64,000 nucleotides of DNA from Bacillota bacterium (GCA_041695355.1 JBGFRB010000002.1:25962-89961), one strand, 5' to 3'. Positions 1 to 19,391 are shown, counted from the stretch's first letter. The notes: a model not told the origin generated them from the letters alone. Program-made: numbers and translations.

Positions 1-1
1 A

Positions 2-1795: not shown

Positions 1796-1799
1796 AAAG

Positions 1800-2744
1800 A
1801 TGCAAAACGGCTGTATTGGCTGCGGCGAGTGCCTGTCCGCCTGCCCCCGCCGGGCGATCAGTTATCAGGATGATACAGTTCAATTTCTGGAGGACCTGCG
1901 TCGGGGTAAAGCTATTTCACTTTTAGTCGCGCCGGCTGTTAACAGTCAGTTCGCTTCGCCTGGAAAACTGTTTGGCTTCCTGAAGCAGTCAGGAGTTGAG
2001 TCAGTTTACAACGTCCTCGTTTACGCGGACATAGCCCTTTGGGCTTATGTAGAGGTCTTGCGCCGTAATCCCGGCGCAGGGTTCATTGCCTCGCCCTGTG
2101 CAGCGGTTTCCCGTTATATTCAATGCCACCTGCCCGGGTTACGGCGGCAGCTCATCCCGGTTTTCAGCCCGCTGCATTGCGCGGCAATCTTTCTCAGGAA
2201 ATACAGGAGAGCGGAGGAGAAACTGGCTTTCCTTTCACCTTGCATTGCGAAGCGGGCAGAAATGCGCACCGTCGGCCGCTCAGTGGTCTCTTACAACATC
2301 ACGATTGGGCGGTTGAAGAAACACCTTGGCGAACAGGGTGTGGACCTTAACGCCTGCCCGGCAGCGGACTTTGACGATGCGGCCGGCGGCAACGGCAGAA
2401 CCCTGGGATTTTATGGCGGGTTGCGTGAAAGCCTGCTTCCCCATTTCCCAAACGGGCGCTTCGAGAAAATCAGCGGCCCTGACAGGGTTTACGAATATCT
2501 GGCTGAATTCACGGAAGCAGTGCGGCGGAAGGGTAAGCTGCCGGACTTGCTGGAAGCCTACAACTGCGCCGACCCCTGTGACGGCGGCCCAGGCACCGGA
2601 CAGGTGCCGGCGCCCGACACTCTCCGGAAAGCGGTTGCCGGTCCCGCCGGTCCTGAGGCGGCGGAGAACCACAGAACAGTGCGGGAAATGTTCCACAGAT
2701 TTAAGCGCGAACTGAATTTGTCAGATTTTATGACATTGTACTAG
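1800..2744 (+). CDS. Fe-S protein with an N-terminal 4Fe-4S ferredoxin motif and an [FeFe]-hydrogenase large-subunit C-terminal-like domain
   Basis: N-terminal CIGCGECLSACP motif, then LVAPAV, ASPCAAV and LSPCIAK segments typical of the Fe_hyd_lg_C fold. It starts 5 nt after the preceding gene. Confidence 0.5.
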   Translation: MQNGCIGCGECLSACPRRAISYQDDTVQFLEDLRRGKAISLLVAPAVNSQFASPGKLFGFLKQSGVESVYNVLVYADIALWAYVEVLRRNPGAGFIASPCAAVSRYIQCHLPGLRRQLIPVFSPLHCAAIFLRKYRRAEEKLAFLSPCIAKRAEMRTVGRSVVSYNITIGRLKKHLGEQGVDLNACPAADFDDAAGGNGRTLGFYGGLRESLLPHFPNGRFEKISGPDRVYEYLAEFTEAVRRKGKLPDLLEAYNCADPCDGGPGTGQVPAPDTLRKAVAGPAGPEAAENHRTVREMFHRFKRELNLSDFMTLY

Positions 2745-2767
2745 TCGGTGTCACCGCTAACTCAGCA

Positions 2768-3325
2768 GTGGAGGCGAACAGAGTGGCCGAGGTTATATGT
2801 GTCAGGGACCAGGGAACAGTTATTCAAATAGCCCACCAGGAGATGCTGAAATACCACGGCTGTTCTTTTGTTGCCGGCGTGGCCATGGCGTTTAAAATGC
2901 TGGAACTGGCGCTGTCCTGTCTGGCCGGCGGGGAAATTGTGTCCCGCGATAAAATCAGCATCCTGCTAGGAGTTGACGGTCCGGGAATTATCGACGGCAT
3001 TGAAATGGTCACCAGGGCGAACACCCAAGGCAGGCTGACAGTCGACCCGCAAATCGCCCGGGATAAAGATGCCCCCGATGCTGCCGACGGACGGGGTGGC
3101 AAATATTACTTTGAAGTAAGATGCAACGAAAAGATGATCAGCCTGGCCTTAAAACACGGACTCATCCCATCCGAATTCATTGAACTGTCGTACAAAGTTC
3201 ATGCCGGTACGATTACAGTGGAGGAAGCGATTCAGCTGCAGAAGCTAAAAGAGATGTTAGCTGACTTGTTGATGGCTTCTGACTCAAGTGATTTGTTTAC
3301 GGTCTTTGTTGTCCGTCCAGACTGA
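2768..3325 (+). CDS. hypothetical protein (185 aa); faint FmdE-like HG-x-C segment
   Basis: Long ORF with codon usage like its neighbours. It has a GTG start with a poor RBS, so the start is uncertain. I recognise no firm family. Confidence 0.4.
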   Translation: MEANRVAEVICVRDQGTVIQIAHQEMLKYHGCSFVAGVAMAFKMLELALSCLAGGEIVSRDKISILLGVDGPGIIDGIEMVTRANTQGRLTVDPQIARDKDAPDAADGRGGKYYFEVRCNEKMISLALKHGLIPSEFIELSYKVHAGTITVEEAIQLQKLKEMLADLLMASDSSDLFTVFVVRPD

Positions 3326-3346
3326 TTTACTTCCTAAGTTTGGCAG

Positions 3347-3375
3347 TTGACGCAACAGGTAAAGCTAGCTATAAT
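3347..3375 (+). promoter_or_regulatory. sigma-A type promoter, TTGACG-17 nt-TATAAT
   Basis: TTGACG at 3347-3352 and TATAAT at 3370-3375 with an exact 17-nt spacer, about 50 nt upstream of the ATG at 3426. Confidence 0.7.
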
Positions 3376-3380
3376 GGTGA

Positions 3381-3395
3381 TGAGAAGGATTTTCA
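3381..3395 (+). promoter_or_regulatory. Fur-family 7-1-7 operator candidate (TGAGAAG-G-ATTTTCA)
   Basis: Matches 11 of 14 positions of the Bacillus-type Fur 7-1-7 consensus TGATAATnATTATCA. It starts 6 nt after the -10 element. It is nearly identical to the box at 7876-7890 (ATGAGAAGGATTTTCATT versus ATGAGAATGATTTTCAAT, 16 of 18). Confidence 0.55.
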
Positions 3396-3425
3396 TTCTT
3401 TACATACTGTCCGGGGGTGATAACA

Positions 3426-4124
3426 ATGACAAGTCTCCCCGCTGCTGTTTTTCATGAAGAGCGAACGGTAGCAAAAAAGGAAACGATAGAAGCTTTTATT
3501 GTCCGCGAGGGCATATATATCTTAGAGGAAGAATTGGACTATTTTTTTGCAAATAAGGCAAAGATGCTGGAGTTGCTGGTGCACAGTATCAATTTCAGTA
3601 AAATCAGTTCCGCGGTACTTCAGGAAAAAATAAACCAGATATTGGGTTCAACTCATGACTTAGAAATGATTCTTGCTAAAATTCAAAGGAGAATCGTAAG
3701 GGAGCTGGACAGAGCCAATTACCGGTATGCTTTTTGTTTAAATATTGCCGATCTGGATCAAGAGTTGCCTCGGTTTGAATCAGATATTACAGAGCAACAG
3801 AGAACACTCAAACTTAGCCGTACCATTGCCAGGGGAATTGATATGGCCTGGAGAAAAGCCGGAAGCAGTTTTCTGCCGAAAAACATGACGAGAGTAACCA
3901 ATACGCTACAGGCGGGTAATTACCTTATCTCTGTTTTTGCCGTAAGTCCCAGACAACAGGAAACCGAAATGAAAGCCGGCTGTCTGAAAGCGGCAAGAGC
4001 GACACTGAAACAATTTCAGGCTGAGCTTTACAATACTCTGGTAAAACAGATAGCGGGGCAACTGTTCACACTTCAGGGTTATTATGAACCGGAGCCCGAG
4101 ATGCCCCTGGTAAAATATGCGTAG
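3426..4124 (+). CDS. hypothetical soluble protein (232 aa); low-GC orphan gene behind the Fur-like box
   Basis: ATG at 3426 preceded by GGGGGTGA. The ORF is closed by an intrinsic terminator. I recognise no family. Confidence 0.6.
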   Translation: MTSLPAAVFHEERTVAKKETIEAFIVREGIYILEEELDYFFANKAKMLELLVHSINFSKISSAVLQEKINQILGSTHDLEMILAKIQRRIVRELDRANYRYAFCLNIADLDQELPRFESDITEQQRTLKLSRTIARGIDMAWRKAGSSFLPKNMTRVTNTLQAGNYLISVFAVSPRQQETEMKAGCLKAARATLKQFQAELYNTLVKQIAGQLFTLQGYYEPEPEMPLVKYA

Positions 4125-4152
4125 CGATAATAACAAAATATTTTAATTAGCC

Positions 4153-4176
4153 GCCCGGGAAACGGGCATTTTTTTA
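4153..4176 (+). terminator. rho-independent terminator
   Basis: GCCCG-ggaaa-CGGGC stem-loop followed by A and a run of 7 T, about 30 nt after the stop at 4124. Confidence 0.65.
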
Positions 4177-4203
4177 TATGCTTTTGCATACACAGGAAAA
4201 TTT

Positions 4204-5040
4204 ATGGAAATGATACCAGATAGATTTTATAGGAGGGAAGAACTGGTGACAGACCTTAATCATGCCGATGAAAAAGCTAAAAAAGGTAACGGAGAGGAAG
4301 GATTGGCACCTCCCTTAAACTATAGTGCCCCAGGACCCGTACCTTCGGGGCACTTTAATCCGTGGCAAACGGCTCCGCCTGGTGGATACGGCTACGTAAA
4401 CCCGGGGACATCGGCCGGGGGAGGCTACGTCAATCCGGGACAGACCGGTTTCCCGGGAAGTAATCCGGGCTATCAACAGCAAAGTACAAAAAAAATCAAT
4501 CAGGAGGGTCCCATGAGCTACGCAGGATATCCGGGAATGTACGGCGCTTATTACGGGCAGGGCATCAGAGATCCGCACTACAGATACGCAACCCCAGCGA
4601 ACTACCCGTATCATTATCACCCTCAACATGATCACTCTTGTTACCATCATCCTTATTATTATCGCTATGGATATAATCCTTACTATGGCGGCGCCGGTTA
4701 CGGGATGAATCCGGCCGGACCCGGCTACGGCGATCCGTGCTGCAGCGGCGCCGGGCCAAACATCTTTACTCCTGGATATTTTTCCTACATGCTGCACAGC
4801 CCCAGGGTAAATAATTTCTTCCGCGCCATTGGTATTTTGACGGTGGGTATGTTACTGATTCCATCGGTCGCAAGGGCTTTACGTCCCCTTGCCGTCTCCG
4901 CTGTTGAAGGTGCTTTGACTGTTTCACAGGAAGTAAAAAATATCTTCAACGATGCCAGGGAAGATGTGGAGGATATGTTTGCCGAGGCTAAGTGGAAAGA
5001 TGGAAAAGAAGCGGGAAAAGAAGGTAACCAGGGCAGCTAG
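4204..5040 (+). CDS. membrane-anchored protein with a roughly 200-aa Gly/Pro/Tyr/His-rich low-complexity N-terminal region and a C-terminal TM plus amphipathic helix module (possibly DUF5132-type)
   Basis: Translation read directly. It has GGYGYVNPG / GGGYVNPG repeats and a His/Tyr patch HYRYATPANYPYHYHPQHDHSCYHHPYYYRYGYNPYY. The C-terminus (FFRAIGILTVGMLLIPSVARALRPLAVSAVEGA) is paralogous to the next ORF. Confidence 0.6.
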   Translation: MEMIPDRFYRREELVTDLNHADEKAKKGNGEEGLAPPLNYSAPGPVPSGHFNPWQTAPPGGYGYVNPGTSAGGGYVNPGQTGFPGSNPGYQQQSTKKINQEGPMSYAGYPGMYGAYYGQGIRDPHYRYATPANYPYHYHPQHDHSCYHHPYYYRYGYNPYYGGAGYGMNPAGPGYGDPCCSGAGPNIFTPGYFSYMLHSPRVNNFFRAIGILTVGMLLIPSVARALRPLAVSAVEGALTVSQEVKNIFNDAREDVEDMFAEAKWKDGKEAGKEGNQGS

Positions 5041-5128
5041 TCGCTTTTGCGGCTTTTTGCAGTAGCATCAATATTTACCTCCTTGCGCAGGAATACTAAG
5101 AATAAAGACTGCGTGAGGAGGTTTTGCC

Positions 5129-5377
5129 ATGTTAAGTTTGTATAGAAAGTTGTTTTACACCGCTCCCTTTCGCAGGGGCCTTTGGTGGGGCGCAGGCACC
5201 GCAGGGGTACTGTGGCTCTTTGGCAAGAACCTGCGGCCGCTGGCAGTGGAAGGCGCCAAGAAATTGATTAAACTGGACCAAGGAGTTAAGGACGCTGTCC
5301 GGCAGGCCAGCGAAGGTGTAAGCGGAATTGTAATGGAGGCCCAGGCCAACAGGTTGAAAGATAAGGAGTACCGGTGA
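5129..5377 (+). CDS. small single-pass membrane protein, paralog of the C-terminal module of the 4204 ORF (possibly DUF5132-type)
   Basis: GAGGAGG RBS. It shares the LRPLAV-EGA-V(K)(N/D) segment with ORF 4204-5040. Its stop overlaps the ATPase start (TGAATG), suggesting translational coupling. Confidence 0.6.
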   Translation: MLSLYRKLFYTAPFRRGLWWGAGTAGVLWLFGKNLRPLAVEGAKKLIKLDQGVKDAVRQASEGVSGIVMEAQANRLKDKEYR

Positions 5378-7714
5378 ATGAGTTTTGGCCGGATTGAAGC
5401 GATCCATTGTTTGCCCGGAAGGGTTCGGGTAAAAATACACGGTTTAAAAGGGAACGTCCCCTTTGCAGTTTCACTGGAAAATACCTTGCGCAGAAACGAG
5501 TATGTTTTTCACGTTAAGGCTAATCCGCAAACGGCTAAAGCCTTAATTCTCTTTGACGGAGAAAGGTTGCCTCCGGAAACACTCTTTGCTGAACTAAAGA
5601 CTGATATACACTATATTTCGCAGAGAGTTGCACCCGTTGACGTCAGGCAAAATCGGATTCAGGCGGGAACTGCAATCAGGCGAAAAGATGAAACGTTTGA
5701 GCCGGAAGATATGCCGCTTGCGGTTCAGGTTGCCCAGGTGGCCGTCACCGGCGCTATCCTCCTGGGGCTGATTTTAAAGAGATATTTTTTTAAAACATCA
5801 CTGCCGGTCTCCTCCGGCAGGGTGAATTTTCTGGCTACGATGACCACAATCATAGCCGGCTATCCCATTATCCGAAGCGGCCTGGAGAAACTGATCACCC
5901 GCGGAAAACTGAATAACGACCTGCTTATCAGTACATCAACAATGGTTGCGCTGTTGTTAAAAGAAAATATTACCGGGCTGGTGGTTGTCTGGCTGGTAAA
6001 CCTGAGTACCCTGCTGCAGACACTAACGATGAAAAAATCACGGAAAGCAATCAAAGAAATGTTACAGGGTAAGGAAGAGACAGCCTGGATTGAAATAGAC
6101 GGTACTGTGGTCTCGATTCCCGTTGACAGCATTGAAGTGGGAAACACCATTCTCTGCTTTATCGGCGACCGCGTACCTGTTGATGGTGCAGTTACCGATG
6201 GCGAGGCAACTGTCAGCCAGGCTGTCATTACCGGTGAGTCAGTGCCGGTAATGAAAACCCCGGGAGACAAAATATATGCAGGTTCCATTGTGGAGCAGGG
6301 CACGGTCAGAATCCTGGTGGAAAAGGCAGGACAGAATACTTCCATTGCCAAAATTGCGGCCATGGTAGAGGATGCTTCCTGTGACAGGGCTCCGGTTGAG
6401 AATATGGCGGACCGTTATGCTGATAGAATTGTTCCCTTCTCATTTGGACTGGCCGCGCTGGTATACCTGTTAACCAGGGATTTCAAGCGCAGCATGACCA
6501 TGTTGGTGGTCGCCTGCCCCTGTGCCGCCAGCCTTGCTACGCCCACTGCTATCAGCGCATCCATGGGTAATGCGGCGCGACGCGGTATATTGGTCAAGGG
6601 AGGGAGCTACCTGGAAAGAGTGGGTAAGGCTGACGTGGTCCTATTTGATAAGACAGGTACGTTAACCGAAGGCAAACCCACCGTCAGAGAAATCCTGCCC
6701 ATGAGCAAAACATTCCCTATTGATATGATAGTACAGCTTGCTGCTTCGGTAGAGTATCAGACAAATCATCCCCTGGCCGGCGCGGTGGTAAAGGCTGCTG
6801 AGGAAATGGGGCTTGAATTGCATCCTGTTAGCCGGAAGGAAGTTATTATCGGCCAGGGCGTCAGGGGAAGCATTAAAAATGTGCCTTTGGCTGTGGGCAA
6901 CTCTACTCTGATGAGAGATATGGGGATTAACATTACGTTGGCAAAGGCCAAAGCTTACAGGCTGCATATGCTGGGGCAAACCGTTCTGTATGTGGCCCGG
7001 TACAACAGGCTGATCGGTCTCATTGCCATCGCCGACAACATCCGTCCTGACAGCCTGACAGCTATCCGGAAACTGCGGCAGGCCGGTATAGAACATATTG
7101 GTTTAGTCACAGGCGACAGCAATGGCACAGCTGACCTGGTGGCGCGGGAATTGGGGCTTGACAAGGTATGGTCGGAAACAATGCCGGCTGACAAAGTACG
7201 TATTGTTCAAAAATTCCAGCAGGCTGACAAAACAGTTGTCATGGTGGGAGACGGTATTAATGACTCGCCGGCTCTGGCCAGGGCTGATATCGGAATAGCT
7301 ATGGGTACCGGGGGAACGGACGTGGCTATTGAATCGGCGGATATTGTGCTGGCTGCCGACGATCCCCTGAAAATAGCCTCTCTGATTAGTTTAAGCAAAC
7401 ATACCCTGGAGATCATAAAACAGAATTTCCTGTTTGCGGTGGGGATCAATATCAGCGGACTGCTCCTGGGAGCGGGCAAGGTGATTACTCCGTTAACAGC
7501 AGCCGTCTTACACAATATAAGCACCTTTGGCGTGGTGGCGAACTCATCGAGGCTGTTTCACTTTAATCCTGATTCCGTGAAAGGAAGGCGCGGTAATGCC
7601 GGAATTAAGCGAACTGGAAGGCAAAATGAAAATGGCTATGAAGGAGCTAAAGGAATGCGTAGAGGTAAGTATGCGGATCAGAGCGGAAGACCCCGAAGCA
7701 AAAAAAAGAATTGA
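5378..7714 (+). CDS. heavy-metal translocating P1B-type ATPase with an N-terminal cysteine-less HMA-like (HMA2-type) domain
   Basis: Motifs TGESVPV, ACPCAASLATP (CPC in the TM helix), DKTGTLT, NHPLA, GDGINDSPAL and HNISTFGVVANSSRL. The N-terminus reads IHCLPGRVRVKIHG. Confidence 0.9.
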   Translation: MSFGRIEAIHCLPGRVRVKIHGLKGNVPFAVSLENTLRRNEYVFHVKANPQTAKALILFDGERLPPETLFAELKTDIHYISQRVAPVDVRQNRIQAGTAIRRKDETFEPEDMPLAVQVAQVAVTGAILLGLILKRYFFKTSLPVSSGRVNFLATMTTIIAGYPIIRSGLEKLITRGKLNNDLLISTSTMVALLLKENITGLVVVWLVNLSTLLQTLTMKKSRKAIKEMLQGKEETAWIEIDGTVVSIPVDSIEVGNTILCFIGDRVPVDGAVTDGEATVSQAVITGESVPVMKTPGDKIYAGSIVEQGTVRILVEKAGQNTSIAKIAAMVEDASCDRAPVENMADRYADRIVPFSFGLAALVYLLTRDFKRSMTMLVVACPCAASLATPTAISASMGNAARRGILVKGGSYLERVGKADVVLFDKTGTLTEGKPTVREILPMSKTFPIDMIVQLAASVEYQTNHPLAGAVVKAAEEMGLELHPVSRKEVIIGQGVRGSIKNVPLAVGNSTLMRDMGINITLAKAKAYRLHMLGQTVLYVARYNRLIGLIAIADNIRPDSLTAIRKLRQAGIEHIGLVTGDSNGTADLVARELGLDKVWSETMPADKVRIVQKFQQADKTVVMVGDGINDSPALARADIGIAMGTGGTDVAIESADIVLAADDPLKIASLISLSKHTLEIIKQNFLFAVGINISGLLLGAGKVITPLTAAVLHNISTFGVVANSSRLFHFNPDSVKGRRGNAGIKRTGRQNENGYEGAKGMRRGKYADQSGRPRSKKKN

Positions 7715-7832
7715 TAACTACTGGGAGCAGTTTCTGTTCCACTTCCTCGAGTATGTCAGGCGGCGGGAAAAAGAGAGCGGAGAAGACCTTTTAAAAAGCA
7801 TCTCCCTGTTAAAATTGCTCAAACTGTTTTAA
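7596..7832 (+). CDS. possible small helical protein (78 aa) overlapping the ATPase 3' end by 119 nt
   Basis: ATG preceded by AGGAAGG at a 7-nt spacing. The product is Glu/Lys-rich and looks helical, whereas the overlapping ATPase tail is an Arg/Gly/Lys-rich low-complexity string. No family recognised. Confidence 0.3.
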   Translation: MPELSELEGKMKMAMKELKECVEVSMRIRAEDPEAKKRIDNYWEQFLFHFLEYVRRREKESGEDLLKSISLLKLLKLF

Positions 7833-7840
7833 AAACGCTC

Positions 7841-7869
7841 TTGACATGAGCGGGTAAAATAAATATACT
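7841..7869 (+). promoter_or_regulatory. sigma-A type promoter, TTGACA-17 nt-TATACT
   Basis: TTGACA at 7841-7846 and TATACT at 7864-7869 with a 17-nt spacer, about 47 nt upstream of the ATG at 7916. Confidence 0.65.
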
Positions 7870-7876
7870 AGTATAT
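7863..7876. promoter_or_regulatory. perfect 14-bp palindrome ATATACTAGTATAT overlapping the -10 element
   Basis: Self-complementary by direct reading. A second inverted repeat, TATATGA (7872-7878) / TCATATA (7894-7900), brackets the Fur-like box. Confidence 0.5.
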
Positions 7877-7890
7877 GAGAATGATTTTCA
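7876..7890 (+). promoter_or_regulatory. Fur-family 7-1-7 operator candidate (TGAGAAT-G-ATTTTCA)
   Basis: Matches 12 of 14 positions of TGATAATnATTATCA. The 19-mer GAGAATGATTTTCAATATC (7877-7895) matches 15 of 19 positions of GATAATGATAATCATTATC. Its position relative to the -10 element is the same as for the box at 3381. Confidence 0.6.
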
Positions 7891-7915
7891 ATATCATATA
7901 CTTGGGGTGGAAAAC

Positions 7916-8197
7916 ATGACAGTATTATTGGTTGGCGCGGACAGGCTTGGGAATATGCCGAAAGAACTGGAAGATCACGGCGCCAGAGAAATCATTCATT
8001 GGTCGGGACGCAAGGAAAGAAACAGGGAGATTCCGAGACATGTTGATATGGTTCTCGTTGTTCACGACTATGTTAACCATTCGTTGATGGACAGCGTCAA
8101 AGGACAGGCCAAGCGCCGCCGGTTGCCCATTGTCTTTGCCAAAAGAGGGGTGGCCGACCTGAAACAGGCATTGACAAACGGGAAACGACAGGCGTGA
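7916..8197 (+). CDS. DUF2325-like small protein
   Basis: ATG at 7916 with a GGGGTGG RBS; the track's GTG at 7907 is less likely. The pattern VLLVGADRLG...HW.G...VDMVLVVHDYVNHS...AK resembles DUF2325 from memory. Confidence 0.6.
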   Translation: MTVLLVGADRLGNMPKELEDHGAREIIHWSGRKERNREIPRHVDMVLVVHDYVNHSLMDSVKGQAKRRRLPIVFAKRGVADLKQALTNGKRQA

Positions 8198-8232
8198 AAC
8201 AGTTCTTTCCCCCAGCGGAGGAGAAATCATAG

Positions 8233-8937
8233 ATGATGACCAAAATTGTCAGGTTTTTTCAGCCCGGTGTACAAAAGACCGGTTTCGGCTTTGCCGGGTA
8301 CCGTGAGCAGGCTGAAGCAAATTATCAGGATTTTTTTCACGACATCATTGAGTGTCTGATTGCGGCGCTGGAAGCGAAGGACGTGTATACATGCGGCCAT
8401 TCTTCCAGGGTGGCGGATATGTCCTTAGACCTGGCACGAGCACTGGAAATAAAAGGTGCGGACCTTGACGACGTACATATTGCGGCTCACTTGCATGATG
8501 TGGGGAAAATCGGAATCTCAGAAAATATTTTAACCAAGCCGGGAAAGCTGATTGCTCATGAATGGGCGCAAATGCAGAGGCACCCGGTAACAGGCTATAA
8601 CATCCTGCGTAAATCAAAACTGCTTTATAAGATTGCCAAAATAGTTCTCCACCATCATGAAAGATGGGATGGGACAGGCTATCCCCAGGGCTTGCAGAGA
8701 AACCATATTCCCTTAGGTTCGAGAATAATTGCCGTGGCCGATGCCGTTGATGCCATGACCACGGATAGGCCTTACAGAACGCCTCTGTCTTGGGATGGTT
8801 GTTATCAGGAATTGCAGAAGAACAAAAGTAAGCAATTTGACCCGATAGTGGTCGATGCCGCAGCACAATTCCGGAAAAAATGGGCGGAAATCCGGTATGA
8901 TAAGCAGGTTGCGGATAAAAGACAGCAGAGCGATTGA
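8233..8937 (+). CDS. stand-alone HD-GYP domain phosphodiesterase (c-di-GMP turnover)
   Basis: Motifs HSSRVA, HLHDVGKIGI and HHHERWDGTGYPQGL, with a GGAGGAG RBS. Confidence 0.85.
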   Translation: MMTKIVRFFQPGVQKTGFGFAGYREQAEANYQDFFHDIIECLIAALEAKDVYTCGHSSRVADMSLDLARALEIKGADLDDVHIAAHLHDVGKIGISENILTKPGKLIAHEWAQMQRHPVTGYNILRKSKLLYKIAKIVLHHHERWDGTGYPQGLQRNHIPLGSRIIAVADAVDAMTTDRPYRTPLSWDGCYQELQKNKSKQFDPIVVDAAAQFRKKWAEIRYDKQVADKRQQSD

Positions 8938-8943
8938 AACATA

Positions 8944-9495
8944 ATGAGGAAGTCGGGTGAGATTATGAAGACATTTCTTGGCAGTGTTGTCTTTTCCCTG
9001 GTGAGCGGTGCTATGATGAAAAGTATATGTGCGTTGAACATCCGTGTTTTACACGCTATGCCCGGCAGAATGCGCCTGCAGTGCAATGCCTGGAAAAGTG
9101 AACCCGTTGCGGAAGGGGTGGCTGATTCCCTCCGTAGATATAGCTTTGTGGAGCGAGTAAACATATCTCCGGTTACCGGGAGTTTGCTGCTCCAATTCAC
9201 GCAAAAGCACTTGAGCCGGAAACAGGTTGACAAGGTTATGGATTTGCTGGCGAAACAAACGATGGCAGGTATTGAAAAAGAAGTGTCCAGTTCTACACTG
9301 TTGATGGGCCGGATAGTTAATCACCTGGACAGTCAGGTAAAAGTAGCATCAAATGGGATCTTTGATTTGCTGTCTCTTTTTATTATTGCCCTGACTGCTC
9401 AGGCAGTAAGGGGGTTTAGCAGTAACCGCGGCAATTCACTTCAGCAGTTGTTCTGGGTGTACAGGTTGCTGCGAGGCGGGAGGCAAGTAATTTGA
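8944..9495 (+). CDS. HMA-like (HMA2-type, no CxxC) domain protein with a C-terminal hydrophobic segment
   Basis: LHAMPGRMRLQCNAW...VNISPVTGSLLLQF parallels the N-termini of both ATPases. There is a TM-like stretch GIFDLLSLFIIALTAQAV. Its stop overlaps the TTG start of the next ATPase (TTGA). The start could instead be the ATG at 8965. Confidence 0.6.
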   Translation: MRKSGEIMKTFLGSVVFSLVSGAMMKSICALNIRVLHAMPGRMRLQCNAWKSEPVAEGVADSLRRYSFVERVNISPVTGSLLLQFTQKHLSRKQVDKVMDLLAKQTMAGIEKEVSSSTLLMGRIVNHLDSQVKVASNGIFDLLSLFIIALTAQAVRGFSSNRGNSLQQLFWVYRLLRGGRQVI

Positions 9496-11651
9496 AGAGC
9501 TCTATACAGGTGCTCCATCACCTGCCCGGAAGGGTGAGGATACGAATCGGCAAAGGCCTGGGTCATGCGACACTGATTGAAAGCAAATGCCGTCGCCTGC
9601 CTCAGGTATATGCGGCAAACTACGCTGAGCAAACAGGAACTCTTTTGCTTTACTATGACCCGTTATTTCCCGGGAGCAGGGTCATGCTCTGGGTGAGAGA
9701 GCTGTTTTTGAACGGTAAGAAAACAACTGAGCAGCATGACTACGGGAAAAATGGATCGCCGGCGTTATCATCAGAGATTTTTAAAAACATCCTGGCCATT
9801 GCAGTCTATGCCATTGAACGTTCCCTGACGCCCTCCCGGAAAGCTGAGGAAAGCGGGCTGCGCCGTCTTTTAAGTCCGACGGTTCTGGCCTTGCTGTTTG
9901 CCGCCAAACAGGTTATTCGCAGTGGAATTGACAGTATGATGATAACGAAGCAGGTAAACGCCGTTACTTTAACTGCAGTGGCCGTCCTTGCCGCAGCCGT
10001 AAAGGGGAAGGCCGGTTCTGCATTAATCATCGTTACTCTTTCTAATCTCGGGGAAATACTGACCCAGTACACTGCCAATAAAACAAGAAACTATATCACA
10101 CGTATGCTGAAGCTGGATGTCCCCTACGTGTGGCGGGTGGAGAACGACGGAAATGAGCGTAGTGTTCATATCGACTCAGTGGTTCCGGGAGAAACAATCG
10201 CAGTTTTTATAGGGGAAAAAATATCGGTGGATGGTTGCGTGACTTATGGTTTGGGGACCGTTGACGAGTCTTCGCTTACAGGCGAATTTATGCCCCGGGA
10301 GGTGGTAAAGGGTAGCCGTGTTTATGCCGGCAGCATCTTAAAGTCAGGCTATATTCAGATCCAAGCGGAGAGGGTAGGCGACGACACAGCAATTACCCGT
10401 ATGATAAAACTTATTGAACAGGCCCAAAACAGACGAGCGCCGATCCAGTCACAGGCGGATAAAATGGCCCAGTCGCTGGTTCCCGTGTCATTTGCCATGG
10501 CGGCGGCTGTTTACGCTTTGACCAAGGACTGGAGCCGCGTAATGAACATGCTGTTCATCGATTATGCCTGCGGCCTGACACTTTCTACAACGACCGCCAT
10601 TTCCGCAGCTATTGGTAAAGCGGCCAAACACGGCATTTTAATCAAAGGAGGGCAATACATAGAGTGGCTATCCGGGGTGGATACGGTTGTCTTTGATAAA
10701 ACGGGAACCCTTACTGAAGGAAGGCCGGTAATTCGTAACATTTATTATTTTAATAACCATACAAAAGAGGATGTAATTCGCTATGCGGCTTCTGCTGAAG
10801 AGCATTCCTCGCACCCCTTTGCCGGTACCATTTTGCAGTATGCCAGGGAACAGCAATTATGTATTCCGGAACACGGTGAGGTGTTAAACATCATAGGCCG
10901 GGGCATACAGGCGGAGATAGACGGCAATATGGTACTGGTGGGCAGTGACCTGCTGATGAAGGAGAAGCTTGTTGATCTCAGTTCCCGCCAGACGGAAGAG
11001 CTGAAGGCTGCGGCGGATGAGGCGATGATTTATGTCGCGTGTAACGGCAGGCTTATGGGCATGATCAGCGTTCATGACCCGGTGCGTGCGGGGATGAATC
11101 GCACCGTTAACCAGTTGCGCCGTCAGGGGATTGACGAAATTATCCTTCTTACAGGCGATAAAAAGCGGTTAGCCGGCCATATTTCCAATAAACTGTTTTT
11201 TGATAATTACCACGCTGAGTTGTTGCCGGAAGATAAGGCCAACTTAATTAAATGGTACCGGCAAGGCGGCAGCAGGGTGATGATGGTGGGTGACGGTATT
11301 AATGATGCGCCTGCCCTGGCTTATGCGGATGTGGGAGTTACATTAGGTGGCAAGCGTACAGATATGGCTATGGAAGCCAGTGACGTAATCATCATTGGAG
11401 ATGACCCCCTACAGTTGCCCACACTAATCAGACTTGCTCAGCAGACAATGAAAACCATCCGGCAAAACTTCTTAACTACCATTATGGTTAACAGCATAGC
11501 GATGATGCTGGGAGCAATGGGTACTATCACGCCGGTTCAGGCAGCTCTGATACATAACGCGACCACTATCGGCGTGGTGGTTAACAGTTCCAAGATAATA
11601 TTTGTAAAGCTTCCCGGTAATGGTAACGTTACCGTGCATGAGAGGAGGTGA
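9492..11651 (+). CDS. divergent P1B-like P-type ATPase with an N-terminal HMA2-like domain and no CPx motif
   Basis: Motifs TGEFMPR, DKTGTLT, SSHPFAG, GDGINDAPAL and HNATTIGVVVNSSKI. The position aligned with CPC reads DYACGLTLSTTTAI, which lacks the proline. The N-terminus reads LHHLPGRVRIRIG. Confidence 0.88.
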   Translation: MKSSIQVLHHLPGRVRIRIGKGLGHATLIESKCRRLPQVYAANYAEQTGTLLLYYDPLFPGSRVMLWVRELFLNGKKTTEQHDYGKNGSPALSSEIFKNILAIAVYAIERSLTPSRKAEESGLRRLLSPTVLALLFAAKQVIRSGIDSMMITKQVNAVTLTAVAVLAAAVKGKAGSALIIVTLSNLGEILTQYTANKTRNYITRMLKLDVPYVWRVENDGNERSVHIDSVVPGETIAVFIGEKISVDGCVTYGLGTVDESSLTGEFMPREVVKGSRVYAGSILKSGYIQIQAERVGDDTAITRMIKLIEQAQNRRAPIQSQADKMAQSLVPVSFAMAAAVYALTKDWSRVMNMLFIDYACGLTLSTTTAISAAIGKAAKHGILIKGGQYIEWLSGVDTVVFDKTGTLTEGRPVIRNIYYFNNHTKEDVIRYAASAEEHSSHPFAGTILQYAREQQLCIPEHGEVLNIIGRGIQAEIDGNMVLVGSDLLMKEKLVDLSSRQTEELKAAADEAMIYVACNGRLMGMISVHDPVRAGMNRTVNQLRRQGIDEIILLTGDKKRLAGHISNKLFFDNYHAELLPEDKANLIKWYRQGGSRVMMVGDGINDAPALAYADVGVTLGGKRTDMAMEASDVIIIGDDPLQLPTLIRLAQQTMKTIRQNFLTTIMVNSIAMMLGAMGTITPVQAALIHNATTIGVVVNSSKIIFVKLPGNGNVTVHERR

Positions 11652-11655
11652 AAAA

Positions 11656-11889
11656 ATGTTAGTAAAGTCAGATTTTTGGATTGGTTTGGCAGTGGGTGCG
11701 GTGACCGGAGTGGTGGGATACCGTCTCTATGACCAATACGGGGACCAACTGAGAAGTCTGGTACTGCAATCCTGCGCTCCGGTAGTCCAGACGGTAACAG
11801 GTGGCGCAGAACCAAGCCTGGAAGAACTGGTTGCGCAAAAAGAGCGGCTGGAGGATCTGATAGCAGAAAAAAAGCAGAAAAATATATAA
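11656..11889 (+). CDS. small single-pass membrane protein with a Gly-zipper TM (GLAVGAVTGVVG) and a charged helical tail
   Basis: ATG at 11656 after GAGGAGG. It starts 5 nt after the ATPase stop. No family assigned. Confidence 0.5.
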   Translation: MLVKSDFWIGLAVGAVTGVVGYRLYDQYGDQLRSLVLQSCAPVVQTVTGGAEPSLEELVAQKERLEDLIAEKKQKNI

Positions 11890-12013
11890 ATGGGTACTGC
11901 TCACGGGCGTTGGCGGCAAAAGCATCACCGCCAATGTCCGTGGGACAACGGCGGACAGTGTGTGTAAGTGGCGCTCCTGTAACGTGGAGCGGAAGACATG
12001 TGAGGCGATCGGC

Positions 12014-13369
12014 ATGAGCAAAAATCTGAAAGATGCCATGAAAAATATTTCTGTCAGTTGCCTGGGTTCCATAAAATTCTGGGGTTTCCCGCTGGTAGCG
12101 TGGACGCTGCTGGCTGCCGCTTCATTACTTTGGAATCTTTACTCTCTCAGGCAGAACACGCTTAAAGCCTTTATGTATGAAGCGCAGACACTGGCCGGGG
12201 TAGCGTTGTCTACCATCATGTGGACTGCCCAACATGAACGGGTATATGTCCCGCTTACTGAATGGATTCCTCCGGAACCATTCTTTGCACAGTTGCCTGA
12301 AAGAGAAGTTGTCACTACCGGCGGTTTAAGGTTTGCGCAGGTATCGCACGCTTTAATCAGCCGCCAGGTAGCGGAACAGGCTTTGCTTCATGGCTGGGAA
12401 CAGAAATCTATCCGCATGACCAGCCTGGAACCGTTAAACCCTGTTAATATGCCTGATAAATGGGAAAAAGACGCATTAAAGAGTTTTAAAAATGGGCAAA
12501 CAGAAACATTCGCCCTTACCGGAGAAGGAGCAGGGGCTTTACTAAAATATATGATGCCTCTCAGGGCAAGGCCGGAATGCCTGAAATGCCATCTTGGCTA
12601 CAGAGAAGGGGACGTCCTTGGCGGTTTGTCTGTCAGTGAGCCGGCGGCGTCACGCCTTGCCATGGTTAAACCACAAATTATCAGCATGATTGCTACTCAC
12701 GCAGGTATATTTTTCTTGGTTGCGGTGGCGATGCTCTTTCTTCTGTCGCGCTTGAGGCGGCAGTGGCTTGATCTTGACCGGAGCAACAATGAGCAGAAAA
12801 ATATGATCGTAAAGCTGGCCGAAAGCGAGGCCAAGCTAAAAGAAATGGCCATCACGGACGAACTTACCGGACTAAAAAACAGGCGGGGATTTTTTCTCCT
12901 TGCCGAACAACTGATAAAGGCAGCTAACCGGCAGAAAACAAAGATCTGGTTTATTTTTATTGATGTTGACGGGATGAAATCAGTTAATGATAAGTACGGG
13001 CATAGCGAGGGGGACGTATCCCTGACCGCGACTGCTGTCATCCTTAAGAATACCTTTCGGGAGTCAGATGTAGTCGCGCGCATAGGTGGGGATGAATTTG
13101 CGGCCATTATCGCAGGTGCCGGTGAAAACAGCGGCTGCGCTATTTTGGCTCGGTTGCGTGAAAATCTGGACCTATACAATGCCGGCGTAATAAAACCCTA
13201 TAGATTGTCCTTCAGTGCCGGCATCGTTTATTGCGACCCTGCTGAAACGTCCTGCAGTATTGAAGCGCTGCTAAAAAAGGCAGATGAATTAATGTATGAA
13301 AGTAAGCGGGGAAAAACCCATTACTGCAATGGCTGCAATACAGGCTCATCCGCGTTGGAACCGGCCTGA
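12014..13369 (+). CDS. membrane diguanylate cyclase (GGDEF) with a periplasmic c-type-heme DUF3365-like sensor domain
   Basis: One CxxCH (PECLKCH) lies between two TM segments. A coiled linker follows, then RIGGDEFAAI. The internal ATG at 12014 (MSKNLKD) is the likely start. Confidence 0.8.
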   Translation: MSKNLKDAMKNISVSCLGSIKFWGFPLVAWTLLAAASLLWNLYSLRQNTLKAFMYEAQTLAGVALSTIMWTAQHERVYVPLTEWIPPEPFFAQLPEREVVTTGGLRFAQVSHALISRQVAEQALLHGWEQKSIRMTSLEPLNPVNMPDKWEKDALKSFKNGQTETFALTGEGAGALLKYMMPLRARPECLKCHLGYREGDVLGGLSVSEPAASRLAMVKPQIISMIATHAGIFFLVAVAMLFLLSRLRRQWLDLDRSNNEQKNMIVKLAESEAKLKEMAITDELTGLKNRRGFFLLAEQLIKAANRQKTKIWFIFIDVDGMKSVNDKYGHSEGDVSLTATAVILKNTFRESDVVARIGGDEFAAIIAGAGENSGCAILARLRENLDLYNAGVIKPYRLSFSAGIVYCDPAETSCSIEALLKKADELMYESKRGKTHYCNGCNTGSSALEPA

Positions 13370-13405
13370 CGCTAACTGTCCGAGGCAACAGGTCAGGCTG
13401 ACTTT

Positions 13406-14710
13406 TTATTGAGGCTCGCTTGCTTCCCTGGCGGCAGTTTGCATCTCCTTGGCCAGACGCATGGCCTCCGCCAGAATCAGCAGCGCTTCCCGCGGATTGT
13501 GGAAGCCTTTGCTGTTGGCTGCAAATACCCAGTCATAGCGGAGAAACGCCATGAAATGGAGGCGCTGTGCCCTGGCCAGCGCTTCCGCATCTGCTCCCTG
13601 TTGATTCCTGGCTTCCTGCAGCAGAGAGATTCCCCTGACAAGTTCTTTTTCCACTTCTGTGAGCAGGCCCTGTACCTGTTCCTGTATGGCGGCAATCCTG
13701 TCACGCAGGTAATCTTCGCTTTGGCGGTGGCAGACGCCGCACGATACCGTGACATTGTCGGCGGGGCTGGCAAATTCGTGAGATGTGATTTTCCTGTTAC
13801 CTGTTTTCAGAAAGGGCATGTGGCAGTCGGCACAGCTTACGCCGGCAACGTGGTGGGCGCCGCCGCTAAAAAACTCGAAATCGGGATGACGGATTTTGGG
13901 GATACCGGTACCGGTTCGCTCGTGCGTCCAGGAACGGTACGTTGACTCCGCATAGTAGGCTTCCACAGACTGCAGGGCTGGTGGCTCATCCCAGGGGATT
14001 TTTACCTCGCCTGTGGCCTGGTCCATAAAATATGTGACGTGGCACTGCGCGCAAACCAGTGAGCGCATTTCCTGACGGCCCGCTTTCTTTAGGTCCCCTC
14101 CCGCCCTGCTGTATGCCTGAATAAACGGCTCTCTGGTCAGCTGCAGAGCCATTGTCTCACTGTCATGACAGTCACTGCAGGAAACCGGGTGCTTGACGAG
14201 GGCTCTCGCCTCCGGAAAAGTCATCTCATAAAAATCCAGGCCCATCTCAGCGATACGTAACGGCGCTTCCGCCGACTTGCATGTCAGGCAGCCCGCTCTG
14301 TTGTTCCGGAAAGGGGCCGCACGCTCCACATCCTCCAGGGAACGGGGGTGTCCCCTTCTTTCCCGGATGTCCGGCGCAGCCTCATATCCGGCCCAGAGTA
14401 TTTCAAGGGCGGGCCGCAACTCCACCTTGCGGGGCGGTATTTCGCCGGTGTAGCGGGGGGTATCTCCTCCTTTCAGCCCTTTCAAATACGACTGATAATG
14501 GTCGGGAAACCATTTGCCCCAGCTGGCCGGATTAGTGTCACCGGCTTCAATGTCCCAGCGTATCGGCGGCCGGGACGGCAGAACGTGCCTTTTGTAAAAC
14601 TGCCTGGTTGCCAGTATACCGGCGCCGATGCCTGCGAGTAACAGCACAAAAGCAAAAATAACCGGCCGAAGCCACTTTTCCCAGCCGTTATGTCTGTTTT
14701 TCTTTTTCAT
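13406..14710 (-). CDS. nrfA: pentaheme cytochrome c nitrite reductase (ammonia-forming), catalytic subunit
   Basis: The CLTCK (CxxCK) hallmark plus four CxxCH motifs (CSDCH, CAQCH, CADCH, CGVCH), with an N-terminal TM/signal anchor. Confidence 0.88.
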   Translation of the reverse strand: MKKKNRHNGWEKWLRPVIFAFVLLLAGIGAGILATRQFYKRHVLPSRPPIRWDIEAGDTNPASWGKWFPDHYQSYLKGLKGGDTPRYTGEIPPRKVELRPALEILWAGYEAAPDIRERRGHPRSLEDVERAAPFRNNRAGCLTCKSAEAPLRIAEMGLDFYEMTFPEARALVKHPVSCSDCHDSETMALQLTREPFIQAYSRAGGDLKKAGRQEMRSLVCAQCHVTYFMDQATGEVKIPWDEPPALQSVEAYYAESTYRSWTHERTGTGIPKIRHPDFEFFSGGAHHVAGVSCADCHMPFLKTGNRKITSHEFASPADNVTVSCGVCHRQSEDYLRDRIAAIQEQVQGLLTEVEKELVRGISLLQEARNQQGADAEALARAQRLHFMAFLRYDWVFAANSKGFHNPREALLILAEAMRLAKEMQTAAREASEPQ

Positions 14711-15131
14711 GAGAACCCCCTTGCAACCGGTGCGGCGTCTGCCGGTGACAGTGAATACAGTCCAACGTTTCTTTTGCCGGAAAGTCCCTCAGCAAGACAC
14801 CGTGACAGCGCAGGCAGTTTTCTCTGACAATGCGTTGCGTCGGCGGTTTCGCCCTGTAAAGGTCCGGCGTGTCCCCGATAAAGTACCGGTATACGTCCCT
14901 GATTCCGTAACGCAGCGTATGATATATTCCCCGGATGTCCTGCGGAATATGGCAGGCCTGACAGTTGGTAAACGGCCTGTGGGCGGAGTGGAGCCAGGTT
15001 TCATAGAGAAGTTCCACGCCGTGGCAGAGGTTGCAGAACTCCGGCGTTTCCGTAAACTCATAGGCCCGGAAGCTTAAATATCCTATAGCTATAAAAGAAA
15101 CTGTCAGTGCGATGACGGTAAAACGGCTCAT
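14688..15131 (-). CDS. nrfH: tetraheme NapC/NirT-family quinol dehydrogenase, NrfH
   Basis: An N-terminal TM and four CxxCH motifs (CNLCH, CQACH, CLRCH, CIHCH). It overlaps the nrfA start by 23 nt. Confidence 0.85.
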   Translation of the reverse strand: MSRFTVIALTVSFIAIGYLSFRAYEFTETPEFCNLCHGVELLYETWLHSAHRPFTNCQACHIPQDIRGIYHTLRYGIRDVYRYFIGDTPDLYRAKPPTQRIVRENCLRCHGVLLRDFPAKETLDCIHCHRQTPHRLQGGSHEKEKQT

Positions 15132-15287
15132 TCAACACCTCTGTCGGTTTCCTTCACGTAATTTATTCTGGTGCAGAAAGGGTAAATTTAAACAAAAATA
15201 CTCCTCTTGTAAATCTAATATTGCTTTACTTTTTGAGTTTGTATGACATAATATAAAAATAAAAGGAAATTGCATGGAGGTACCACA

Positions 15288-15530
15288 ATGTCACTTGCCA
15301 AAATATCGGAAAAGGGCCAGCTTACTTTGCCCAAAGAGATTAGGCGAAGATACAACATTAACAAAGCGAGCTATGTGCGCATCATTCCGCTGGAAGACGG
15401 TGTTAAACTGGTTCCTACTAATCAGGGAGGAATATCTTCTTTGCGGGGTGTTGTAAAGGTTGATGGGGAGCAAGACTTCAGGGCCATACGCAATCAGGTA
15501 ATGGAGACCCGCTATCGTGAGAACCATTGA
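15288..15530 (+). CDS. AbrB/SpoVT-type antitoxin (VapB-like)
   Basis: The N-terminus MSLAKISEKGQLTLPKEIRRRYNI is a swapped-hairpin signature. GGAGG lies 7 nt upstream of the ATG at 15288. It overlaps the PIN gene. Confidence 0.75.
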   Translation: MSLAKISEKGQLTLPKEIRRRYNINKASYVRIIPLEDGVKLVPTNQGGISSLRGVVKVDGEQDFRAIRNQVMETRYRENH

Positions 15531-15918
15531 TGCCAATGTTGTCCTGCGCTATTTAACCAACGATGTTCCAGACCAGGCGAGGCAGACCGAGGAATTATTT
15601 AAAAGGGTTGAAGAGGGAAAAGAGGATTTATTCCTGCCGGATATTATTCTGGCGGACATAATATGGATTCTTGAACGGTACTACAAACAAACAAGAGAAG
15701 ATATCCGAGAATGGCTCACTGCAATAATAGGTTTGCAGGGGTTGAGATTATCTGATAAAGATATGTCATTGAATGCTTTGGATATTTATGTGGATAAGAA
15801 AATTGATTGGTCGGATGCGTTTACGGCCAGCCAGATGCTGCAACGGGGGATTACAAAAATATACTCATTTGACAAGCATTTCGACCGGATTGATGGTATT
15901 ATCAGAATTGAACCGTGA
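15517..15918 (+). CDS. PIN-domain toxin (VapC-like)
   Basis: The N-terminal IDANVVLRYL acidic residue and the 133-aa size fit a PIN domain. The 14-nt overlap with the upstream antitoxin is typical type II TA architecture. Confidence 0.75.
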   Translation: MRTIDANVVLRYLTNDVPDQARQTEELFKRVEEGKEDLFLPDIILADIIWILERYYKQTREDIREWLTAIIGLQGLRLSDKDMSLNALDIYVDKKIDWSDAFTASQMLQRGITKIYSFDKHFDRIDGIIRIEP

Positions 15919-15964
15919 AGGAGAATCCACTGACGCAAAATTTGGGGGTACCGTGTTTTATCAA

Positions 15965-16684: not shown

Positions 16685-16731
16685 GTTCAGACGGGAATAT
16701 GAGTGTCCCTTTAATTTTGGAGGGGAGAGCG

Positions 16732-18821: not shown

Positions 18822-18823
18822 TT

Positions 18824-18879: not shown

Positions 18880-18920
18880 AAAGGCAAGCAAGACGGGGGA
18901 GCGGAAACCGGAGAGGAGGT

Positions 18921-19367: not shown

Positions 19368-19391
19368 GCTAATTAAGGAGGCTGATAACCT

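Follow-up and report, generated by a model that had tools for sequence, protein, structure and literature searches.

The closest described relatives of the locus considered here are the ferrosome (fez) gene clusters and the CtpC-PacL1 system of Mycobacterium tuberculosis. The ferrosome ATPase FezB is defined by D[Y/F]SCA in transmembrane segment 4 (TM4), HNxxT in TM6 and an N-terminal arginine-rich (R-rich) motif, and a second ATPase, FezH, has been noted in larger fez clusters (Grant & Komeili, 10.1101/2020.01.10.902569). In Clostridioides difficile, a fur mutant makes ferrosomes constitutively. CtpC, of a type termed “P1B6-like” by Boudehen et al., forms with PacL1 a zinc “effluxosome” that provides tolerance of zinc, not iron, at the plasma membrane (PMC9374683, PMC13043812). 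DUF1490 (the PacL family) and DUF6110 are related, and both lie beside P1B6 or P1B6-like pumps (Boudehen et al.; PMC9374683, PMC13043812). Ferrosomes and effluxosomes have been studied apart, yet their pumps (P1B-6 or P1B6-like) and scaffolds (DUF6110 or DUF1490) are homologous. Here we describe a locus at positions 3347-13369 of a 64,000-nucleotide stretch from a Bacillota bacterium (GCA_041695355.1, JBGFRB010000002.1:25962-89961; the whole stretch is referred to as the window) that sits between the two, in that a CtpC-like cassette under predicted Fur control is joined to a FezB-sister cassette. Our preferred reading, held tentatively and at somewhat less than an even chance, is that the locus is an iron-starvation-induced, ferrosome-like system for Fe(II) sequestration. 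Judged by its motifs and phylogeny, such a system is built on sister lineages of FezB and not on FezB itself, so that the fez label would be valid at the superfamily level only.

The locus consists of two conserved cassettes, A then B, side by side, and all long open reading frames (ORFs) and features given for it below are on the + strand. Cassette A encodes, in order, a 235-aa protein, a 278-aa protein, an 82-aa protein, a first P-type ATPase (ATPase1) and a 78-aa ORF; cassette B encodes a DUF2325 protein, an HD-GYP protein, a 183-aa HMA_2 protein, a second ATPase (ATPase2), a 77-aa GxxxG protein and a GGDEF protein (families assigned with Pfam and NCBIfam profile searches). An earlier note, made from the sequence alone, had described this 10-kb block as poor in GC and had proposed a fez-type iron organelle built around the two ATPases. 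The first point is correct, the block having 48.8% GC compared with 55.5% in the remaining window and ranking lowest of 108 sliding 10-kb windows.

Both ATPases are present as that note had proposed, with the E1-E2 and HAD domains, the TGE, DKTGT and GDGxNDxP catalytic motifs intact and strong matches to Pfam E1-E2_ATPase (7.7e-44 for ATPase1 and 3.8e-40 for ATPase2) and to the heavy-metal P-type model TIGR01525 (1.8e-163 and 3.4e-160, respectively). ATPase1 (5378-7714; 778 aa) is CtpC-like (“P1B6-like”), with HCLPGRVRV in its HMA_2 module, ACPCAA in TM4 and HNIST in TM6. ATPase2 (9492-11651; 719 aa) begins at a TTG start that is backed by homologues and by the NCBI copy, and carries HHLPGRVRI, DYACG in TM4 and HNATT in TM6, which places it in a “DxxCG” clade. 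The JGI gene call for ATPase2 begins at an internal Met (655 aa) and loses the whole R-rich HMA_2 domain.

To place the pumps, groups were taken from Supplementary Table 1 of the Grant & Komeili preprint: the FezB group (TM4 D[YF]SCA, TM6 HNxxT; D. magneticus, R. palustris and C. difficile), the DxxCG group (D[YF]xCG, HNxxT; Desulfitibacter K364_00695, Bacillus vireti and Leptotrichia), the CtpC-like group (ACPCA[AV]G, HNxS[ST]; M. tuberculosis CtpC, Desyo_2599 and Desru_1040) and the FezH group (ACPCAT[VI], HxxHT, also H[IMV]xHT; Dde_0489, Desal_0106 and Deba_0546). The best named homologue of ATPase2 was a Desulfitibacter protein (63% identity), which is tabulated in a color group separate from FezB (Grant & Komeili, 10.1101/2020.01.10.902569), and D[YF]xCG was found in all 120 top matches. 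ATPase1 showed 58% identity to proteins of Desulfosporosinus youngiae and Desulfitibacter and approximately 40% to mycobacterial CtpC. A scan of a genome collection with the ATPase2 alignment, which used the generic motifs MVGDGxND and DKTGTxTEG, returned ordinary CopA/CadA-type pumps; the references kept from it were seven FezB loci (L002, L008, L014, L023, L024, L052 and L054), a Desulfobulbus fez cluster (L013) and a CtpC locus (L001). In a neighbor-joining tree (54 sequences, 695 columns, 100 bootstraps) that included genuine FezB, FezH and CtpC from fetched loci, ATPase2 fell in the DxxCG clade (100% bootstrap) and FezB formed its own clade (100%), while ATPase1 joined Firmicute ACPCAAG proteins with 54% support and grouped with actinobacterial CtpC in only 39% of replicates. 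Both pumps grouped with FezB, FezH and CtpC at a bootstrap of 25%, and deep nodes with 25-39% support do not resolve the exact sister relations among the FezB, DxxCG, FezH and CtpC-like lineages.

Judged by motifs and placement in the tree, neither pump is FezB or FezH. ATPase2 was rejected as a strict FezB on its TM4 motif (DYACG) and its separate, fully supported clade, and ATPase1 was rejected as FezH on ACPCAAS and HNIST, compared with ACPCAT[VI] and H[IMV]xHT. The fez label of the earlier note thus holds at the superfamily level, where both pumps have the HNxxT motif of TM6 and an R-rich HMA_2 module, but not at the level of FezB itself. That note had also taken the locus to go beyond the fez template by virtue of a second ATPase lacking the CPx proline, which inverts the relationship: the proline-less pump is the FezB-like one and the pump with CPC is CtpC-like. 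Nor is a second ATPase in itself a departure, FezH being already known from large fez clusters, although the motifs of ATPase1 are unlike those of FezH. A third R-rich P1B ATPase of 719 aa was seen directly after cassette A in Desulfitibacter alkalitolerans (L087 11475-13634), with LCPMGVQ in TM4 and a very long branch, and may be a degenerate or regulatory paralogue.

The combination of CPC in TM4 and HN in TM6 gives ATPase1 the P1B6-like signature, and this, with its approximately 40% identity to mycobacterial CtpC, also suits a different reading, in which the locus encodes an efflux platform of the PacL/CtpC type in the cytoplasmic membrane, its pumps clustered by PacL-like scaffolds and with no organelle. 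Its substrate would be Fe(II), or Zn, Mn or Co that mis-metallates proteins when iron is scarce. We consider this possible but somewhat doubtful, and nearly as likely as ferrosome-like sequestration; the grouping of ATPase1 with actinobacterial CtpC that it would lead one to expect is the weakly supported one (39% bootstrap) given above. In its favor, Fur-repressed P1B ATPases that export Fe(II) exist, such as FrvA of Listeria.

The R-rich modules are a feature that the pumps share with FezB and CtpC. When all 64 kb of the window were translated in six frames, H-x-(L/M)-P-G-R-x-R turned up in exactly three places, the N-terminal ends of ATPase1, the 183-aa protein and ATPase2; its Arg-rich copies (GRVRVK, GRMRLQ and GRVRIR) lie, as in the FezB type, on the ATPases and on an accessory protein. 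The three modules had been described in the earlier note as “cysteine-less”, which is loose: each HMA_2 module has one or two Cys and no CxxC. Matches to HMA_2 had been expected and were obtained for ATPase1 (1.2e-8) and the 183-aa protein, but the score of ATPase2 (0.006) was under the cut-off. The free-standing HMA_2 protein (8944-9495; 183 aa) carries HAMPGRMRL, matches HMA_2 over the full-length profile (4.4e-18), has hydrophobic segments at residues 7-25 and 134-152, and is FezC-like, paralleling the membrane-bound FezC of fez clusters as an R-rich accessory protein. Its orthologue lies directly 5' of the ATPase gene in every cassette-B locus that covers that position. HMA_2 is thus the Pfam name of the “R-rich” domain, since HMA_2 proteins are found within the Desulfobulbus fez cluster.

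The two cassettes also share predicted regulatory sites. Each is preceded by one of the two best sigma-70-like sites of the region, both scoring 11/12 against the consensus: promoter A (3347-3375; TTGACG-17-TATAAT) and promoter B (7841-7869; TTGACA-17-TATACT). Starting 5 nt past the -10 hexamer of each lies a Fur-type box, box A being ATGAGAAGGATTTTCA (3380-3395) and box B ATGAGAATGATTTTCA (7875-7890; core TGAGAAT-G-ATTTTCA). The 16-nt sequence ATGAGAAKGATTTTCA occurs in these two copies and nowhere else in the window (chance expectation of 0.05). The core is a 7-1-7 palindrome, TGAGAAT-n-ATTTTCA, with two mismatches to TGATAATnATTATCA in box B and three in box A, and both boxes follow the 7-1-7 pattern of Fur operators and are predicted Fur sites. 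Bound Fe-Fur would be expected to block transcription, because each box sits directly after the -10 hexamer. Box A has the same sequence as a published FUR site predicted in D. alaskensis G20, where it lies 5' of feoAB (Rodionov et al. 2004, PMC545781).

The boxes are also kept in relatives. Upstream of the first gene of cassette A, TGAGAATGATTTTCA was found in metagenome contig L086, the perfect box TGATAATTATTATCA in Desulfitibacter (L087) and TGATAATCATTATCT in Desulfosporosinus youngiae (L088), while contig L084 has a degenerate site only, so that three of the four other cassette-A loci have a recognizable Fur box. A box identical to box B precedes DUF2325 in L083, L092 and L093, and a Fur box was found upstream of the derived cassette B in all close relatives with upstream sequence available. 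Lone DUF2325 genes in relatives (L081, for example) are likewise preceded by Fur boxes. Taken with the two copies in the window, this bears out the proposal in the earlier note of one Fur-type box shared by two promoters.

The shared operator also bears on whether the cassettes belong together at all. They could be two unrelated heavy-metal efflux operons that, with unrelated c-di-GMP genes, came to lie in a low-GC island and have no joint function. Such a chance adjacency would account for the 81%-identical relative L083, in which cassette B comes after the genes that precede the locus in the window and cassette A, HD-GYP and GGDEF are missing, so that cassette A looks like an insertion; it would also account for the absence of cassette A within 10 kb of most DxxCG cores. 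Against it, both operons share an operator that the rest of the window lacks, L084 has the two cassette types close together as well (approximately 4 kb apart, together with a DtxR-family gene and DUF2325) and both occur in the Desulfitibacter genome. The HD-GYP and GGDEF genes hold the same positions in relatives (HD-GYP in L092 and L094; GGDEF in L091 and L094). We therefore regard coincidence as very unlikely.

Cassette A is conserved gene for gene in L086, Desulfitibacter L087, Desulfosporosinus youngiae L088 and L084, and its small proteins are where the ferrosome and effluxosome comparisons meet. The second gene (4204-5040) encodes a 278-aa protein with an N-terminal low-complexity region of approximately 200 residues, a TM segment (residues 205-223, Kyte-Doolittle 1.89) and a PacL/FezA-like C-terminal helix. 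The region is rich in Gly, Pro, Tyr and His, as had been claimed (G 16.5%, P 13.5% and Y 14% in the first 200 residues), and its His-rich stretch, HYHPQHDHSCYHH, which includes HDH, precedes the TM segment. Orthologues occur in all four other cassette-A loci, the TM segment and C-terminal helix being conserved and the N-terminal Gly/Tyr/Pro/Asn/His-rich part variable with His clusters. Directly 5' of ATPase1, the third gene (5129-5377) encodes an 82-aa PacL/FezA-like protein (GLWWGAGTAG...LRPLAVEGAK) that has no Pfam or NCBIfam match and is a paralogue of the 278-aa C-terminus (blastp 33% over 54 aa, E = 1e-3). The earlier note had counted three small single-pass membrane proteins; the TM segment of the 278-aa protein is clear, whereas the Gly-rich stretches of the 77-aa and 82-aa proteins are borderline or below the hydropathy threshold of 1.5. 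A DUF5132 match that it had predicted failed to materialize (E = 0.024), DUF1490 giving the better score for the 278-aa C-terminus (E = 4e-4, 20.8 bits), itself below the cut-off of 28.4.

Directly 5' of fezB, each of the seven genuine FezB loci has a gene for a DUF6110 protein (best 1.9e-38), and four of the seven proteins also matched DUF1490. A hidden Markov model (HMM) of the 82-aa/278-aa C-terminal family found the FezA-like protein in five of these seven loci, the DUF6110 HMM in turn found cassette-A proteins and the protein upstream of mycobacterial CtpC, and the matches in both directions between cassette-A small proteins and the DUF6110 side ranged from 3e-8 to 2e-3. Compared directly with the DUF6110 proteins of fez loci, the family gave an hhalign probability of 79% (E = 1.6e-5). 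These comparisons suggest that the cassette-A small proteins are remote homologues of DUF6110 (FezA-type) proteins, and the profile results agree with the published relatedness of DUF1490 and DUF6110. None of the window's small proteins reached the Pfam DUF6110 threshold; GxxxG is present in the 77-aa and 82-aa proteins. The 77-aa family was tried as a further DUF6110 candidate and rejected (hhalign probability 4.5%, homology not detected); its likeness to a GxxxG protein of the Desulfobulbus fez cluster was weak (hhalign probability 67%, E = 5e-5). That cluster (L013 5632-16736, from a Desulfobulbus metagenome-assembled genome) is a large fez-type one with three ATPases, one FezH-type (SCPCATV/HILHT), one FezB-like (DYSCV/HNLST) and one with ACPCALR/HNLLT, along with a DtxR-family regulator, a FeoA-domain protein, an HMA_2 protein and a GxxxG protein.

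The same proteins can be claimed for export across the cytoplasmic membrane. A DUF1490-like protein encoded directly 5' of the pump recalls pacL1 5' of ctpC, single-pass scaffold-like proteins that may be akin to DUF1490/DUF6110 are encoded immediately upstream, as in PacL1-CtpC, the protein upstream of mycobacterial CtpC is itself found by the DUF6110 HMM, and the HDH-containing His-rich stretch of the 278-aa protein recalls the DLHDHDH of PacL1. However, the DUF1490 match is under the cut-off, and the DUF1490 family is reportedly confined to Actinobacteria; the His-rich stretch is N-terminal to the TM segment, within a 200-aa disordered domain, unlike the C-terminal motif in the cytoplasmic C-terminus of PacL1; and the C-termini of the cassette-A PacL-like proteins are Lys/Glu-rich, with no His and no PacL-type metal motif such as DLHDHDH. 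The locus further differs from PacL1-CtpC in its Firmicute lineage (approximately 40% pump identity), in having two PacL-like paralogues and the extra conserved 235-aa and 78-aa genes, in its linkage to a second, FezB-like cassette and in having a Fur box instead of zinc-responsive control. No ArsR, MerR or CsoR metal-sensing regulator lies nearby, and Fur control suits iron over zinc.

Cassette B differs in its distribution. In approximately 25 loci the DxxCG ATPase is the third of five genes in a rigid core, preceded by HMA_2 genes of ∼100 aa and then ∼180 aa and followed by an HMA_2 gene of ∼200 aa and then a GxxxG gene of ∼75 aa. These pumps belong with the published DxxCG R-rich P1B ATPases (group #FCE7F1; Desulfitibacter K364_00695, Bacillus vireti, Leptotrichia and Fusobacterium), with which ATPase2 shares the TM4, TM6 and R-rich motifs. 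A derived form, found in the window, L083 and L091 to L094, runs DUF2325, sometimes HD-GYP, HMA_2 (∼180 aa), ATPase, GxxxG and sometimes GGDEF; the window thus keeps the flanking ∼180-aa HMA_2 and ∼75-aa GxxxG genes of the core but lost its ∼100-aa and ∼200-aa HMA_2 genes and gained a Fur-box promoter with DUF2325, HD-GYP and GGDEF. Five-gene DxxCG cores have no Fur box. On this comparison cassette B is a lineage-specific form, under predicted Fur control, of a core that is itself widespread. Downstream of the core in Desulfuribacillus lies a GGDEF-FeoA-FeoA-FeoB-x-HD-GYP operon preceded by a Fur box, an iron-related setting that speaks for the ferrosome-like reading.

In weighing the two leading readings, Fur control as in C. 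difficile, an anaerobic context and a Fez-like list of parts, set against the zinc function of CtpC-PacL1 and the ZnuA context in the Bacillus group, appear to us to favor ferrosome-like sequestration slightly. The parts in common with fez clusters are P1B ATPases with HNxxT in TM6 and an N-terminal Arg-rich HMA_2, the R-rich accessory protein, small hydrophobic GxxxG proteins and putative remote DUF6110 kin, a second ATPase (optional in fez clusters), predicted Fur-type control and an anaerobic host, evidence for the last being the genes in the window for NrfA/NrfH, for a CODH/prismane protein and for an Fe-hydrogenase-like protein. Several observations nonetheless weigh against it. Along with the TM4 motifs, which are not D[Y/F]SCA, and the position of ATPase2 outside the FezB clade, the homology of the small proteins to DUF6110/DUF1490 is remote and under Pfam cut-offs, and the window has no gene for a DUF4405, DUF2202 ferritin-like or FeoA-domain protein, in which it also differs from fez clusters. 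The nearest characterized relative of ATPase1 is CtpC, which with PacL1 makes a zinc efflux platform and no organelle, and granule formation has been shown for no member of either pump clade. Finally, members of the DxxCG clade in Neobacillus, Pontibacillus and Halobacillus lie beside ZnuA/ABC-3 genes with no Fur box, and these Bacillus-group genera are aerobic; ZnuA/ABC-3 transporters adjoin the DxxCG core in two relatives, which again suits efflux. Beyond the fez complement, the locus adds the 235-aa helical, Tyr/Gly/Pro/His-rich PacL-like, 78-aa and DUF2325 proteins and a pair of c-di-GMP enzymes.

If the locus is ferrosome-like, Fur would repress both operons in plentiful iron and iron starvation would release them. 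The Arg-rich, CxxC-less HMA_2 domains may dock the pumps to the free-standing HMA_2 protein, and the glycine-zipper proteins, like FezA and PacL, may gather the pumps into a specialized vesicle or membrane domain. On the return of iron, the pumps would move Fe(II) into this compartment for storage, where the His/Tyr-rich region of the 278-aa protein may bind or nucleate metal, and the heme-c-sensing cyclase and the HD-GYP protein could tie the system to redox or iron status via c-di-GMP. Iron as the substrate, and sequestration in a compartment rather than export, are what we infer from the regulation and the parts.

A variant that we consider rather unlikely is that the two cassettes together build an undescribed membrane metal compartment, intermediate between ferrosomes and mycobacterial effluxosomes. 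CtpC-like and FezB-sister pumps would be corralled by PacL/FezA-like glycine-zipper proteins, the Tyr/His-rich disordered protein would bind or nucleate the stored metal, and assembly would be gated by Fur and the c-di-GMP pair. If this were true, ferrosomes and effluxosomes would be two faces of one ancient P1B-6 system.

Both pump clades were already listed as FezB relatives and speculated to act alike (Grant & Komeili, 10.1101/2020.01.10.902569), and PacL-like proteins were already tied to P1B6 pumps (Boudehen et al.). What appears to be new is a CtpC-like cassette of five genes that is conserved in Firmicutes, is under predicted Fur control and includes a Tyr/His-rich PacL-like protein, together with the DxxCG core of five genes, the joining of both cassettes in one locus and the attached c-di-GMP pair. 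Since cultured anaerobes (Desulfitibacter alkalitolerans and Desulfosporosinus youngiae) carry these cassette types, whether relatives of FezB build iron organelles, and what determines if metal is stored or exported, is directly testable.

The c-di-GMP genes give the locus a further aspect, and here the expectations for DUF2325, HD-GYP and GGDEF were all confirmed. The DUF2325 protein (7907-8197; 96 aa, Pfam 1.4e-15) opens cassette B and is followed by the HD-GYP c-di-GMP phosphodiesterase (8233-8937; 234 aa, HD_5 1.7e-37, motif HHERWDGTGYP). The cassette closes with a membrane diguanylate cyclase (11960-13369; 469 aa, GGDEF 1.4e-34, Tll0287-like 6.7e-14), in which two TM segments flank a Tll0287-like sensor with a CLKCH (CxxCH) heme-c motif, followed by RESD-x5-GGDEF with an RxxD I-site; this architecture suggests an extracytoplasmic c-type-heme sensor feeding c-di-GMP synthesis. 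In Desulfovibrio, the predicted FUR regulon counts among its members gdp (for a GGDEF protein), hdd (for an HD-domain protein) and the gene of a P-type ATPase, all behind TGAAAATnATTTTCA-type boxes, one published site being identical to box A (PMC545781). There these genes are scattered over loci, whereas here they form one operon under predicted Fur control in a Firmicute-like organism. The locus would therefore be a physical link from Fur iron sensing to c-di-GMP turnover, earlier only predicted from scattered regulon members. Beside a five-gene DxxCG core in another relative, a divergent c-di-GMP-I riboswitch (L116 5985-6066, - strand; 73.9 bits) is a further hint tying this pump family to c-di-GMP. 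No riboswitch or other known RNA, which could reveal the metal, was found in positions 1-20000 of the window at E ≤ 0.1, and no known RNA element was found upstream of related DxxCG cores.

The heme sensor of the cyclase also bears on another possibility, that, when iron is limiting, the pumps export metal for insertion into secreted or extracytoplasmic metalloproteins, with the small proteins as chaperones. CtpC has reportedly been proposed as a Mn(II) pump that metallates secreted proteins. The locus adjoins genes for extracytoplasmic multi-heme proteins: nrfA (cytochrome c552 nitrite reductase) and an nrfH-like NapC/NirT gene (13406-15131, - strand) converge on its end. Yet nrfHA is convergent and showed synteny with cassette A or B in none of the relatives compared, no candidate client protein is conserved in the neighborhood, and later CtpC papers saw no manganese phenotype (PMC9374683, PMC13043812). 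We consider metalloprotein loading highly improbable, and ferrosome-like storage remains the reading that we prefer.

The remaining genes of the cassettes match no known family. The first gene of cassette A (3417-4124) encodes a soluble, all-helical protein of 235 aa (232 aa if the ATG at 3426 is used) with no Pfam or NCBIfam match and five homologues by word search; orthologues head cassette A in L086 (57% identity), L087, L084 and L088. Its AlphaFold2 model is helical (pLDDT 69.8) and, searched against the PDB with Foldseek, matched generic helical bundles only (E ≥ 0.087, TM-score ≤ 0.3). The last gene of cassette A, a soluble 78-aa ORF (7596-7832) absent from the gene list of the earlier note, begins in another frame inside ATPase1, whose last 119 nt it shares; it has no Pfam match and is conserved, with 69, 50 and 43% identity to overlapping ORFs at the same position in L086, L084 and L087, respectively. 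In cassette B, the 77-aa GxxxG protein (11656-11889; FWIGLAVGAVTGVVGYRLY ... EELVAQKERLEDLIAEKK) has a Gly-rich hydrophobic stretch, GLAVGAVTGVVG, and no Pfam or NCBIfam match; it is kept directly after the ATPase or ∼200-aa HMA_2 gene in approximately 30 loci, and its family forms 40 clusters among 1.84 billion representatives.

Some features of the surroundings are also worth recording. Between the 235-aa and 278-aa genes, a terminator-like hairpin, GCCCGGGAAACGGGC, with a T-run (4153-4167) is followed by no strong promoter and could attenuate read-through inside operon A. Downstream of nrfH, a second and sharper GC dip (41.8%) at 15001-16000 covers intergenic sequence and the start of a methyltransferase gene. 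Upstream of the locus, positions 8-3325 (+ strand) encode a BcrAD/DUF2229 activase, an Fe-hydrogenase-like protein and a 185-aa protein assigned to no family, in synteny with L083 1-9028. In L083 this gene string is headed by an NMT1-type ABC transporter with a perfect Fur box (179-193) upstream of it, so that the locus may be part of a wider iron-responsive island.

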